From NCBI RefSeq assembly GCF_055900595.2, contig NZ_CM148325.1: DNA of 64,000 bases, one strand, 5' to 3'. The stretch's first letter is position 1. Each line of letters opens with the position of its first letter. A model generated the notes under the pieces. The model saw nothing but the letters and a program-made list of their open reading frames with translations, was not told the origin of the DNA and made no database searches. Position numbers and translations under genes: made by a program. Below, in pieces: positions 12,629-64,000 of the stretch.

Positions 12629-12731
12629 GGTCGCACTCTTTTTCTGGATATAAAAGTGCGCACCATTATAAAAACAAAGCAGGGTAAAAATCCACGATTG
12701 CGCAACGATTTTTTACGTTGCGCAATTGGGG

Positions 12732-13913: not shown

Positions 13914-16709
<2,796 letters not shown>

Positions 16710-16820
16710 TCCTCTCTTTATCTGCTATACCTGGTAGTGTCCTTTCCTCAAGGTTAATGATAAAAAATGTGGCACACAGGCGGTGCCTTTTATTTTTACT
16801 GAAGTTCACAGGAGGTTTAT

Positions 16821-17588
16821 GTGTTTAATTCTGACAACCTGAGACTCGACGGAAAATGCGCCATCATTACAGGTGCGGGTGCAGGTATTGGTAAAGAAAT
16901 CGCCATTACATTCGCGACAGCTGGCGCATCTGTGGTGGTCAGTGATATTAACGCCGATGCAGCTAATCATGTTGTAGATGAAATTCAACAACTGGGTGGT
17001 CAGGCATTTGCCTGCCGCTGCGATATTACTTCCGAACAGGAACTCTCTGCACTGGCAGACTTTGCCGTCAGTAAGCTGGGTAAAGTTGATATTCTGGTTA
17101 ACAACGCCGGTGGCGGTGGTCCTAAACCGTTTGATATGCCAATGGCGGATTTTCGCCGTGCTTATGAACTGAATGTGTTTTCTTTTTTCCATCTGTCACA
17201 ACTTGTTGCGCCAGAAATGGAAAAAAATGGCGGTGGCGTTATTCTGACCATCACTTCTATGGCGGCAGAAAATAAAAATATCAACATGACCTCCTATGCG
17301 TCATCTAAAGCTGCGGCCAGTCATCTGGTCAGAAATATGGCGTTTGACCTGGGTGAAAAAAATATTCGGGTGAATGGCATTGCGCCGGGGGCAATATTAA
17401 CCGATGCCCTGAAATCCGTTATTACACCAGAAATTGAACAAAAAATGTTACAGCACACGCCGATCAGACGTCTGGGCCAACCGCAAGATATTGCTAACGC
17501 GGCGCTATTCCTTTGCTCGCCTGCAGCCAGCTGGGTAAGCGGACAAATTCTCACCGTCTCCGGTGGTGGGGTACAGGAGCTCAATTAA
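16821..17588 (+). CDS. hdhA: 7-alpha-hydroxysteroid dehydrogenase (SDR family)
   Basis: 255-aa ORF with SDR motifs (TGAGAGIG; Y-x3-K region). Confidence 0.93.
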   Translation: MFNSDNLRLDGKCAIITGAGAGIGKEIAITFATAGASVVVSDINADAANHVVDEIQQLGGQAFACRCDITSEQELSALADFAVSKLGKVDILVNNAGGGGPKPFDMPMADFRRAYELNVFSFFHLSQLVAPEMEKNGGGVILTITSMAAENKNINMTSYASSKAAASHLVRNMAFDLGEKNIRVNGIAPGAILTDALKSVITPEIEQKMLQHTPIRRLGQPQDIANAALFLCSPAASWVSGQILTVSGGGVQELN

Positions 17589-17808
17589 TACACTAACGGA
17601 CCGGTAAACAACCGTCCGTGTTGTTTACCGGGATAAACTCATCAACGTCTCTGCTAAACAACTGGCAACCAAATCACGGATATTGGTTAACCAATTTACG
17701 AGTGAAAAGTATACGAATAGAGTGTGCCTTCGCACTATTCAACAGCAATGATAGGCGCTCACCTGACAACGCGGTAAACTAGTTATTCACGCTAACTATA
17801 ATGGTTTA

Positions 17809-18399
17809 ATGATGGATAACATGCAGACTGAAGCACAACCGACACGGACCCGGATCCTCAATGCTGCCAGAGAGATTTTTTCAGAAAATGGATTTCACAG
17901 TGCCTCGATGAAAGCCATCTGTAAATCTTGCGCCATTAGTCCCGGGACGCTCTATCACCATTTCATCTCCAAAGAAGCCTTGATTCAGGCGATTATCTTA
18001 CAGGACCAGGAGAGGGCGCTGGCCCGTTTCCGGGAACCGATTGAAGGGATTCATTTCGTTGACTATATGGTCGAGTCTATTGTCTCTCTCACCCATGAGG
18101 CCTTTGGGCAACGGGCGCTGGTGGTCGAAATTATGGCGGAAGGGATGCGTAACCCACAGGTCGCCGCCATGCTTAAAAATAAGCATATGACGATCACGGA
18201 ATTTGTTGCCCAGCGGATGCGTGATGCCCAGCAAAAAGGCGAGATAAGCCCAGACATCAACACGGCAATGACTTCACGTTTACTGCTGGATCTGACCTAC
18301 GGTGTACTGGCCGATATCGAAGCGGAAGATCTGGCGCGTGAAGCGTCGTTTGCTCAGGGATTACGCGCGATGATTGGCGGTATCTTAACCGCATCCTGA
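17809..18399 (+). CDS. uidR: TetR-family repressor of the uid operon
   Basis: 196-aa ORF; TetR-type N-terminal HTH; immediately upstream of uidA. Confidence 0.92.
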   Translation: MMDNMQTEAQPTRTRILNAAREIFSENGFHSASMKAICKSCAISPGTLYHHFISKEALIQAIILQDQERALARFREPIEGIHFVDYMVESIVSLTHEAFGQRALVVEIMAEGMRNPQVAAMLKNKHMTITEFVAQRMRDAQQKGEISPDINTAMTSRLLLDLTYGVLADIEAEDLAREASFAQGLRAMIGGILTAS

Positions 18400-18554
18400 T
18401 CCTCTCTCTTTCCGCGGGCTGGTGACAACTGAGCCCGCGTTTCATATCGTAATTTCTCTGTGCAAAAATCATCCTCCCAGGGATCGGAGAATCCCACCTA
18501 AATATTCATCTTAGCAATATATCATGAGGGTTTATCGCTCCCAATATGTTCGAA

Positions 18555-18564
18555 CGAACGTTCG
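18555..18564. promoter_or_regulatory. Palindrome cgaacgttcg in uidA upstream region; candidate UidR/UxuR operator
   Basis: Perfect 10-bp palindrome within ttcgaacgaacgttcgattg, about 220 bp upstream of the uidA start. Confidence 0.35.
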
Positions 18565-18735
18565 ATTGCTTATTTTGTGGCTTCTGTCAACGCTGTTTTA
18601 AAGATTAATGCGATCAATATCACGCTGTGGGTATTGCAGTTTTTGGTTTTTTGATCGCGGTGTCAGTTCTTTTTATTTCCATTTCTCTTCCATGGGTTTC
18701 TCACAGATAACTGTGTGCAACACAGAATTGGTTAA

Positions 18736-21968
<3,233 letters not shown>

Positions 21969-22006
21969 TATTCAATAAAAATAATCAGAACATCAAAGGT
22001 GCAACT

Positions 22007-23272
22007 ATGAGAAAAATAGTGGCCATGGCCGTTATTTGCCTGACGGCTGCCTCTGGCCTTACCTCTGCTTACGCGGCGCAACTGGCTGACGATGAAGCGG
22101 GACTACGCATCAGACTGAAAAACGAATTGCGCAGGGCGGATAAGCCCAGTGCTGGCGCGGGAAGAGATATTTACGCATGGGTACAGGGAGGATTGCTCGA
22201 TTTCAATAGTGGTTATTATTCCAATATTATTGGCGTTGAAGGCGGGGCGTATTATGTTTATAAATTAGGTGCTCGTGCTGATATGAGTACCCGGTGGTAT
22301 CTTGATGGTGATAAAAGTTTTGGCTTTGCCTTGGGTGCAGTAAAAATAAAACACAGTGAAAATAGCCTGCTTAAATTAGGTCGCTTCGGGACGGATTATA
22401 GTTATGGTAGCTTACCTTATCGTATTCCGTTAATTGCTGGCAGTTCGCAACGTACATTACCGACAGTTTCTGAAGGAGCATTAGGTTACTGGGCTTTAAC
22501 GCCAAATATTGATCTGTGGGGAATGTGGCGGTCACGAGTATTTTTATGGACCGATTCAACAACCGGTATTCGTGATGAAGGGGTTTATAACAGCCAGACG
22601 GGAAAATACGATAAACATCGCGCACGTTCTTTTTTAGCCGCCAGTTGGCATGATGATACCAGTCGCTATTCTCTGGGGGCATCGGTACAGAAAGATGTTT
22701 CCAATCAGATACAAAGTATTCTCGAGAAAAGCATACCGCTCGACCCGAATTATACGTTGAAAGGGGAGTTGCTCGGCTTTTACGCGCAACTCGAAGGTTT
22801 AAGTCGTAATACCAGCCAGCCCAATGAAACGGCGTTGGTTAGTGGACAATTGACCTGGAATGCGCCGTGGGGAAGCGTATTTGGCAGTGGTGGTTATTTG
22901 CGCCATGCAATGAATGGTGCCGTGGTGGACACCGACATTGGCTATCCCTTTTCATTAAGTCTTGATCGTAACCGTGAAGGAATGCAGTCCTGGCAATTGG
23001 GCGTCTATTATCGTTTAACTCCGCAATTTACGCTGACATTTGCACCGATTGTGACTCGCGGCTATGAATCCAGTAAACGAGATGTGCGGATTGAAGGCGC
23101 GGGTATCTTAGGTGGTATGAACTATCGGGTCAGCGAAGGGCCGTTACAAGGGATGAATTTCTTTCTTGCTGCCGATAAAGGGCGGGAAAAGCGCGATGGC
23201 AGTACACTGGGCGATCACCTGAATTACTGGGATGTGAAAATGAGTATTCAGTATGACTTTATGCTGAAGTAA
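22007..23272 (+). CDS. uidC: Outer-membrane glucuronide porin
   Basis: 421-aa ORF with signal peptide and C-terminal aromatic residues; third gene of the uid operon. Confidence 0.92.
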   Translation: MRKIVAMAVICLTAASGLTSAYAAQLADDEAGLRIRLKNELRRADKPSAGAGRDIYAWVQGGLLDFNSGYYSNIIGVEGGAYYVYKLGARADMSTRWYLDGDKSFGFALGAVKIKHSENSLLKLGRFGTDYSYGSLPYRIPLIAGSSQRTLPTVSEGALGYWALTPNIDLWGMWRSRVFLWTDSTTGIRDEGVYNSQTGKYDKHRARSFLAASWHDDTSRYSLGASVQKDVSNQIQSILEKSIPLDPNYTLKGELLGFYAQLEGLSRNTSQPNETALVSGQLTWNAPWGSVFGSGGYLRHAMNGAVVDTDIGYPFSLSLDRNREGMQSWQLGVYYRLTPQFTLTFAPIVTRGYESSKRDVRIEGAGILGGMNYRVSEGPLQGMNFFLAADKGREKRDGSTLGDHLNYWDVKMSIQYDFMLK

Positions 23273-23280
23273 GAAAAAAC

Positions 23281-63305: not shown

Positions 63306-64000
63306 TTAATTTTTCATTGCTTCGTTATGGGGCATGGTTGGGGCAAACTCGCTTAACTGTGTATTTAACAAAGCTACCTGTGCATTATTGTTTTCAGACA
63401 TCCATTTTCCGTATACCTGAAATACCATTTGCGCATCTGCATGGCCCATCTGGTTTGCTATAAATGCCGGATTAGCACCAGCTGTCAGCGACCAGCAGGC
63501 ATAAGTATGTCTCGACTGATATGATTTTCGATGGCGGAGTCCGGCACGTTTTATCGCTGCGTCCCACATCTGCCTTATTGAGTCAACGGTAAAATGGTCA
63601 CCATAATTTTTTACTCTCGCTGACACTTCAGGTTGAAAAACAAAGGTGCATTTTTGTTTTTCTGTTCTGCCATACTCTCTGAGGTGAACATCAATGATAT
63701 GCTCTTTGCTCAGTCTCGTTAATGTCATCTGACTCCGGAGAGCGTCGATTGCTGGCTTAATAAGATGAATGACCCGATTGGTTCCCGCCTGTGTTTTTGG
63801 TACCGTGAAACGGTCTTTTGCTAAATTTCTCCTGATCATCATTGTTCCATTTTTCAGATCTATGTCCTCCCATCCAAGTGCACACAGCTCACCAGGGCGA
63901 ACGCCAGTATAAACAGAAACACACCATAAATTTTTTGCTTGCTGATTTCTGCACGCATCGATAAGACGGATAAATTCCTCCCGCGAAAGAGGATCCGGAA
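63306..64000 (-). CDS. intQ: Phage-type tyrosine integrase, C-terminal part in window (Qin-like prophage intQ); continues past window end
   Basis: ORF 63306..63842 has the catalytic region (R...HxxR...Y); the same frame stays open upstream to 64000 (…PLSREEFIRLIDACRNQQAKNLWCVSVYTGVRPGELCALGWEDIDLKNGTMMIRRN…). Confidence 0.8.
   Translation of the reverse strand, partial: PDPLSREEFIRLIDACRNQQAKNLWCVSVYTGVRPGELCALGWEDIDLKNGTMMIRRNLAKDRFTVPKTQAGTNRVIHLIKPAIDALRSQMTLTRLSKEHIIDVHLREYGRTEKQKCTFVFQPEVSARVKNYGDHFTVDSIRQMWDAAIKRAGLRHRKSYQSRHTYACWSLTAGANPAFIANQMGHADAQMVFQVYGKWMSENNNAQVALLNTQLSEFAPTMPHNEAMKN

Follow-up and report, generated by a model that had tools for sequence, protein, structure and literature searches.

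Behind hdhA, the 7-alpha-hydroxysteroid dehydrogenase gene of Escherichia coli, lies a perfect stem-loop that no T-run follows, and the question raised by this locus is what such a structure does at the end of a gene. An earlier note, drawn from the letters of the window alone (the window being the whole 64-kb stretch of DNA that was analysed), held the hairpin to be too strong to be accidental but not a canonical intrinsic terminator. It considered an RNA-stability element, a structure adjacent to Rho utilisation, a protein-binding site and membership of a repeat family.

Sequence and uniqueness of the hairpin

The window comes from the E. coli chromosome and carries malX on the minus strand and malI, hdhA, uidR and uidA on the plus strand, in an orientation that is the reverse complement of that of K-12. 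hdhA and uidR are co-directional and 220 nt apart. The local order past hdhA reads TAA tacactaacgga CCGGTAAACAAC cgtccgt GTTGTTTACCGG gataaactcatc, in which a repeat finder detects a perfect 12-bp inverted repeat with 100% complementary arms 7 nt apart (Table 1). Together with the ORF coordinates, this confirms the perfect 12-bp-arm hairpin described in the earlier note, which starts 12 nt past the hdhA stop codon; the noted range, 17596-17635, takes in the hairpin with 5 flanking bases on one side and 4 on the other. In K-12, the stem and flanks are the same as in the window, with one loop difference (CGTGCGT), and the arms are found at 1697260-1697249 and 1697241-1697230 of NC_000913.3, on the minus strand. 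K-12 coordinates were carried to the window via the gap-free alignment of the two sequences.

Table 1. Features at the 3' end of hdhA (window coordinates)
Feature	Position	Strand	Remarks
hdhA CDS, 7-alpha-hydroxysteroid dehydrogenase	16821..17588	+	ORF; name from RefSeq annotation of matching E. coli genomes; stop TAA 17586-17588
Spacer between stop codon and hairpin, 12 nt	17589..17600	+	67-75% identity with sister Escherichia lineages
Stem 5' arm CCGGTAAACAAC	17601..17612	+	Variants C1>U, A11>G, C12>U; sense RNA pairing kept in each
Loop CGTCCGT in the window strain	17613..17619	+	Variable between strains
Stem 3' arm GTTGTTTACCGG	17620..17631	+	Unchanged across the 6 E. coli haplotypes examined; in E. 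whittamii and L009 altered only jointly with its partner
Equivalent of the K-12 primary hdhA mRNA 3' ends	17635..17637	+	NC_000913.3 1697226 and 1697224, minus strand; TRS boundaries 1697220-1697230 = window 17631-17641
C-rich, G-poor tract 3' of the hairpin; candidate Rho-loading (rut) region, putative role	17632..17680	+	First ~20 nt predicted unstructured

The stem of 12 bp includes 6 G-C pairs (50% G+C) and, with its loop of 7 nt, has a size typical of terminator hairpins. The sense-strand RNA also folds into this hairpin, with an energy of -18.7 kcal/mol (z = -3.3), a stability reached by none of 200 shuffles, and the hairpin is kept in a 163-nt context fold. No other perfect hairpin in the 64-kb window combines arms of 12 bp or more with a 3-10-nt loop, for a mean of 0.04 expected per window according to a first-order Markov simulation, any such hairpin being present in 6 of 200 simulated windows. 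The hairpin is thus real and not due to chance, as the earlier note had supposed, and the covariation described in the next section speaks for the same conclusion.

The tail past the stem reads GATAAACTCATC and its equivalent on the other strand reads TCCGTTAGTGTA, with a T-run in neither. A terminator consensus scan of both strands reported nothing at the hairpin site. Among the 10 nt past the stem (GAUAAACUCA), 2 are U, and the other haplotypes have at most 3.

BLAST with queries of 37-49 nt (E-value of at most 10) against 5426 complete E. coli genomes found a single site per genome in 5413 of them, and the 64-kb window holds no further copy with up to one mismatch. A repeat family is therefore ruled out, and the idea of one, raised in the earlier note, falls with exactly one copy per genome. 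A cmscan of positions 16500-18900 against Rfam 15 (E-value of at most 10) returned no family, the only match being a chance one to mir-84 inside hdhA.

Some smaller features of the site were considered and set aside. The bases ACGGAC (17596-17601) are complementary to GTCCGT of the loop and allow a weaker alternative hairpin, which is absent from K-12 and needs the rare loop variant of the window; this pairing is outcompeted by the 12-bp stem in folding, and the loop variant is carried by 12 genomes only. A third copy of TAAACAAC at 17655-17662 is not conserved, K-12 reading TAAATAAC there. A small ORF at 17618-17782 has its frame broken by an 8-bp indel between strains.

Pairing of the stem across Escherichia

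About 99% of E. coli genomes belong to four haplotypes, all of them fully paired. The K-12-type haplotype, with loop CGTGCGT, is found in 2230 genomes, arm 1 CCGGTAAACAGC is combined with loop CGTATGT in ~2588 genomes and with loop CGTACGT in ~571, and the loop variant of the window (CGTCCGT) occurs in 12 of 5413. The A-to-G change of arm 1 at pair 11, present in ~58% of genomes, leaves a G.U pair on the hdhA sense RNA and an A.C mismatch on the antisense RNA, and it also makes the DNA palindrome asymmetric. In two rare E. coli alleles (L088 and L089), C1 or C12 of arm 1 is replaced by T, giving U.G on the sense strand. The same two pairs (1 and 12) are compensated from C-G to U-A in E. whittamii (L008) and in a divergent lineage labelled "E. 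coli" (L009), both of which have one additional G-C pair at the stem base and a loop of 9 nt, CGAGTGAGT or CGAGTGAGC.

These comparisons were made on 8 distinct haplotypes (six from E. coli and two from sister lineages), hand-picked from BLAST samples. On the sense strand, all 96 cells (12 pairs in 8 haplotypes) are paired, two pairs being doubly changed and three one-sided changes all being G.U or U.G wobbles, for 26-49% paired in slid controls. The antisense strand has A.C mismatches in 4 cells, which brings its paired fraction to 95.8%. All 8 haplotypes fold to the hairpin, with energies of -15.4 to -20.8 kcal/mol, and a U-tract is absent from every one examined. The shuffle statistics (13/500) are merely indicative, as the sample is small and hand-picked, and a few stem-breaking alleles may exist among ~30 rare E. 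coli haplotypes.

Compared with the sister lineages, identity reaches 83-92% in the arms and 67-75% in the spacer, with 44-56% in the loop and 39-54% in the poorly conserved 49 nt downstream (17632-17680). Taken together, the wobbles confined to the sense strand, the compensatory changes and the higher conservation of the arms than of the loop and flanks show selection for base pairing in the hdhA sense transcript.

Strains also differ immediately beyond the stem. E. coli strains have none, one or two tandem copies of an 8-bp unit, GCGTGTGC, with its insertion point between 17635 and 17636. The unit is inserted directly past GGGATA, the exact place to which the hdhA 3' ends map, and its presence accompanies the G.U stem haplotype in the sampled strains.

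Beyond Escherichia, the identity of HdhA homologues does not exceed 73%, and both the sequence and the hairpins downstream of them are unrelated, so that the hairpin is Escherichia-specific; for the same reason, the possibility that the element was inherited with hdhA from a donor was rejected. hdhA itself has a patchy distribution. It was recovered at 93-97% identity in other Escherichia lineages (E. whittamii, L009 and E. albertii), the next relatives at up to 73% come from Stutzerimonas, Stenotrophomonas, Rheinheimera, Shewanella and others (loci L011-L087), and no other Enterobacteriaceae carrying hdhA was found among the 80 best loci. This patchiness suggests that hdhA was acquired horizontally.

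E. albertii (L010) has lost uidR and uidABC. The first deletion begins in the hairpin loop and removes arm 2, and no hairpin is left (-4.8 kcal/mol, z = 0.1). In the comparison of positions 2290-2430 of the E. albertii locus with window positions 17613-23277, one deletion runs from the hairpin loop to the last uidR codons; a 53-bp remnant of the uidR-uidA spacer is kept, and homology returns at the uidC-ydgA junction. The spacer remnant indicates that the uid operon is ancestral and was lost in that species. A recombination site at the hairpin was rejected, as the E. albertii break is a deletion of the ancestral uid operon and not an insertion boundary, and a second site is absent.

Mapped 3' ends and known systems

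The 3' end of hdhA has been placed next to the hairpin in published K-12 maps. In Adams 2021 (eLife, PMC7815308, Supplementary file 1), a 'primary' hdhA 3' end is located at 1697224(-), that is 6 nt from the stem (window 17637), in LB at OD 2.0, and another at 1697226(-), 4 nt from the stem (window 17635), in M63 at OD 0.4; the LB OD 0.4 sheet is without an hdhA 3' end. TRS (Nat Commun 2023, PMC10687069), an independent source, reports for hdhA a primary terminus whose peak spans 1697220-1697230 in several datasets. The R value of 0.88-0.90 means that, of the reads starting locally, ~90% fail to extend into the following 67 nt, and Supplementary Data 2-4 of TRS show the hairpin in the same fold (-18.7 kcal/mol), followed by 1-2 U. 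In the Adams and TRS tables, all entries found at coordinates 16972xx belong to the minus strand, that of hdhA. Term-seq was done in K-12, the hairpin of which is one loop base off that of the window.

The hairpin is the 3'-terminal structure of hdhA mRNA, and the sense-strand RNA hairpin very probably marks and protects the hdhA 3' end. The 3'-end mapping proposed as a check in the earlier note thus comes out in its favour, the published primary hdhA ends falling 4-6 nt past the stem and the orthologous loci keeping the motif with covariation. Both the hdhA 3' end and its fold were already known from these K-12 tables (Adams 2021; TRS 2023); the covariation and population analysis is the new content here.

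Several known systems can be compared with this element. Dar and Sorek 2018 (NAR, PMC6061677) described, in E. coli, stem-loops of Rho-dependent transcripts lacking U-richness and followed by a mild excess of C over G. In their study, the diffuse tails left by Rho termination are trimmed to the stems by PNPase and RNase II, and Rho-dependent transcripts have precise 3' ends too. The hdhA hairpin resembles this class in being a stable stem-loop directly upstream of a precise steady-state mRNA 3' end, without a U-tract or an upstream A-tract and with more C than G downstream; like 76% of the class, it is not a REP element. It thus has the sequence-level characters of protective 3' stem-loops of Rho-dependent transcripts. 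The functional characters of the class are read-through when Rho is inhibited by bicyclomycin and longer, exonuclease-dependent tails in pnp or rnb mutants; hdhA is likened to it by its sequence features and the position of its 3' end. No hdhA entry is present in the supplements of the PLoS Genetics paper of Dar and Sorek.

The likeness to a canonical intrinsic terminator is limited to a typical-size hairpin soon after the stop codon, with a 3' end a few nucleotides downstream. A G+C-rich hairpin of ~5-14 bp with a short loop, as expected of such terminators, is found at hdhA, but the run of U (~5 or more in 8 nt) directly past the stem is found on neither strand and in no Escherichia haplotype. 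The stem has only 50% G+C, and the transcript ends at +4 to +6, not inside a U-run. The verdict of the earlier note on this point, that the element is not a canonical intrinsic terminator, holds in every haplotype. REP elements, which act as 3' mRNA stabilisers, are also extragenic palindromes able to block 3'-5' exonucleases at the end of a gene; the hdhA hairpin differs from them in being single-copy, and we take its sequence to be unrelated to the REP consensus.

The closest comparison stands one gene downstream, where the uidR 3' end has the same architecture (window ~18414-18438), with a poor U-tract and a 3' terminus right past the stem. The uidR hairpin reads GCGGGC...GCCCGC and is followed by GTTTCATATCG (window ~18414-18450), and its TRS terminus lies at 1696411-1696413 after a hairpin of -15.6 kcal/mol (PMC10687069). 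The two genes differ in that a significant bicyclomycin-sensitive region is found ~75 nt downstream of the uidR 3' end, whereas none is listed for hdhA. This Rho termination region of Adams 2021 (PMC7815308), at 1696336 (window ~18525), has a Rho score of 5.8 and p = 1e-12.

The hdhA hairpin therefore belongs to a well-known class of 3'-end stem-loops, of which it is an ordinary member, and does not represent a new type of element. With it, the end of the hdhA transcription unit can be set at window 17635-17637, which has little importance beyond annotation. It further illustrates, neatly and within one gene, how compensatory changes on the sense strand maintain a 3' stem-loop that has no U-tract, and could serve as a test case for tools that predict Rho-type 3' ends.

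Other hairpins of the window form a separate observation. Seven further perfect ones have arms of 10-11 bp (540-566, 12697-12726, 36678-36701, 41048-41071, 43202-43227, 49534-49560 and 63635-63662), and the number of hairpins with arms of 10 bp or more comes to 12 when every loop variant is counted, for 0.64 expected. Several of those with 10-11-bp arms are without a clear T-run and may share this 3'-end class.

Possible routes to the 3' end and the uid signals nearby

A full mechanism of Rho termination plus trimming is, on balance, probable for the hdhA 3' end. The inverted repeat would be transcribed as the last structured element of hdhA mRNA, and the 12-bp stem-loop would fix and shield the steady-state 3' end. 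RNA polymerase would most likely pass the hairpin because no U-tract follows it. Termination would occur within the following ~50-200 nt, probably by Rho loaded on the C-rich, unstructured tract at 17632-17680 after ribosomes have left at the stop codon 12 nt upstream of the hairpin. PNPase and RNase II would then trim the loose tail to the stem, following the model of Dar and Sorek 2018. As a side effect, the uidR promoter ~55 nt downstream would be insulated from hdhA transcription.

As for the putative loading tract, its 49 nt count 14 C and 7 G, the C/G ratio in sliding 78-nt windows reaches 1.6-1.8, which is a moderate skew, and positions 17632-17651 are unpaired in the context fold. No Rho region is entered for the hdhA 3' end in Supplementary file 2 of Adams 2021 (PMC7815308), the nearest on the same strand being that at 1696336, beyond uidR; the bicyclomycin experiment in question is closest to LB 0.4, a condition without an hdhA 3' end, and so says little on the hdhA site. 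In the same data, a Rho score of 2.06 at 1697041 is not flagged as significant. Read counts under bicyclomycin rise 1.6-fold around uidR versus 1.2-fold around hdhA, which is only weakly suggestive. Of the roles proposed in the earlier note, that of an RNA-stability element or a Rho-adjacent structure fits the data best, its Rho part being a matter of inference, whereas a protein-binding site is disfavoured by the asymmetry of the palindrome in ~58% of genomes and by a local operator that differs.

The same 3' end could be reached by other routes. The hairpin might itself stop RNA polymerase as a non-canonical intrinsic terminator that needs no U-tract, perhaps with the help of NusA or NusG, so that the mapped ends would be termination points. 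E. coli RNA polymerase requires a U-tract for hairpin-driven release, and only 2 U are found in the 10 nt past the stem, with no haplotype exceeding 3, which makes such a terminator unlikely in spite of the strong stem, the sharp and reproducible 3' end with its ~90% signal drop directly downstream, and the lack of a called Rho region at the site. The ends at +4 to +6 are also closer to the stem than the usual +7 to +9, precise ends are found in Rho-dependent transcripts as well, and hdhA is absent from the supplements of the TERMITe intrinsic-terminator study. A related reading, in which termination efficiency is tuned in a U-tract-independent, factor-assisted terminator or insulator, for instance through the end of translation 12 nt upstream or through the variable GCGTGTGC insert at the 3' end, is very unlikely. 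If true, it would set the read-through of hdhA transcription into the glucuronide repressor gene uidR and would link, in gut E. coli, the control of beta-glucuronidase to bile-acid oxidation. Equally doubtful as the terminator formed by the hairpin alone is an hdhA-uidR co-transcript lacking any intergenic termination, the 3' end of which would result from endonucleolytic cleavage (e.g., by RNase E) in an A/U-containing single-stranded tract followed by trimming to the stem. The two genes are co-directional and separated by only 220 nt, a further 3' end maps to window 17820 inside the start of uidR, and the hairpin would shield an upstream fragment identically. Against this, uidR has a separate promoter in the spacer (TTAACC-17-TATACG, genomic SELEX), and TRS shows little RNA in the 67 nt past the hairpin. 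On present data, the co-transcript is inseparable from the model of Rho termination plus trimming.

The palindrome might also act as double-stranded DNA, either as the operator of a dimeric regulator or as a recombinase core site with 12-bp arms and a 7-bp spacer. Its 12-7-12 geometry is like that of tyrosine-recombinase core sites, the E. albertii uidR deletion begins inside the loop, i.e., the spacer of such a site, and a third CGGTAAAC 8-mer lies at 17775-17782. Such a role is nevertheless extremely unlikely. Indeed, ~58% of E. coli genomes lack the DNA symmetry at pair 11, where G.U is formed in the sense RNA all the same, and the changes at the end pairs are compensatory, so that pairing and not the bases is conserved. 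No genome holds a second copy, no mobile-element context is present, and the RNA 3' ends map exactly at the hairpin. Moreover, the box common to the uidR and uidA promoters is a different one, ATTGGTTAAC(C/T)AAT, represented by ATTGGTTAACCAAT and ATTGGTTAACTAAT and unrelated to CCGGTAAACAAC.

The uidR promoter known from published genomic SELEX (TTAACC-17-TATACG) corresponds to window 17686-17714. The -35 hexamer TTAACC of this promoter is overlapped by a perfect 14-bp palindrome, ATTGGTTAACCAAT (17682-17695), and a near-identical copy, ATTGGTTAACTAAT (18727-18740), stands just upstream of the uidA promoter region. From its sequence and placement, this box looks like a candidate shared operator for uid regulators. 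In genomic SELEX, UxuR alone bound at the gntP-uxuA spacer only.

The 5' region of uidR (17721-17822) retains 94-95% identity between E. coli and the sister lineages, for 39-54% in the adjoining spacer. A strong K-12 Term-seq 3' end at 1697041(-), found in LB 0.4 and M63, corresponds to window 17820, 12 nt inside the uidR ORF, and coincides with the base of a predicted stem at 17782-17820. This region may give rise to a conserved ~100-nt RNA derived from the 5' UTR, or may act as an attenuator.
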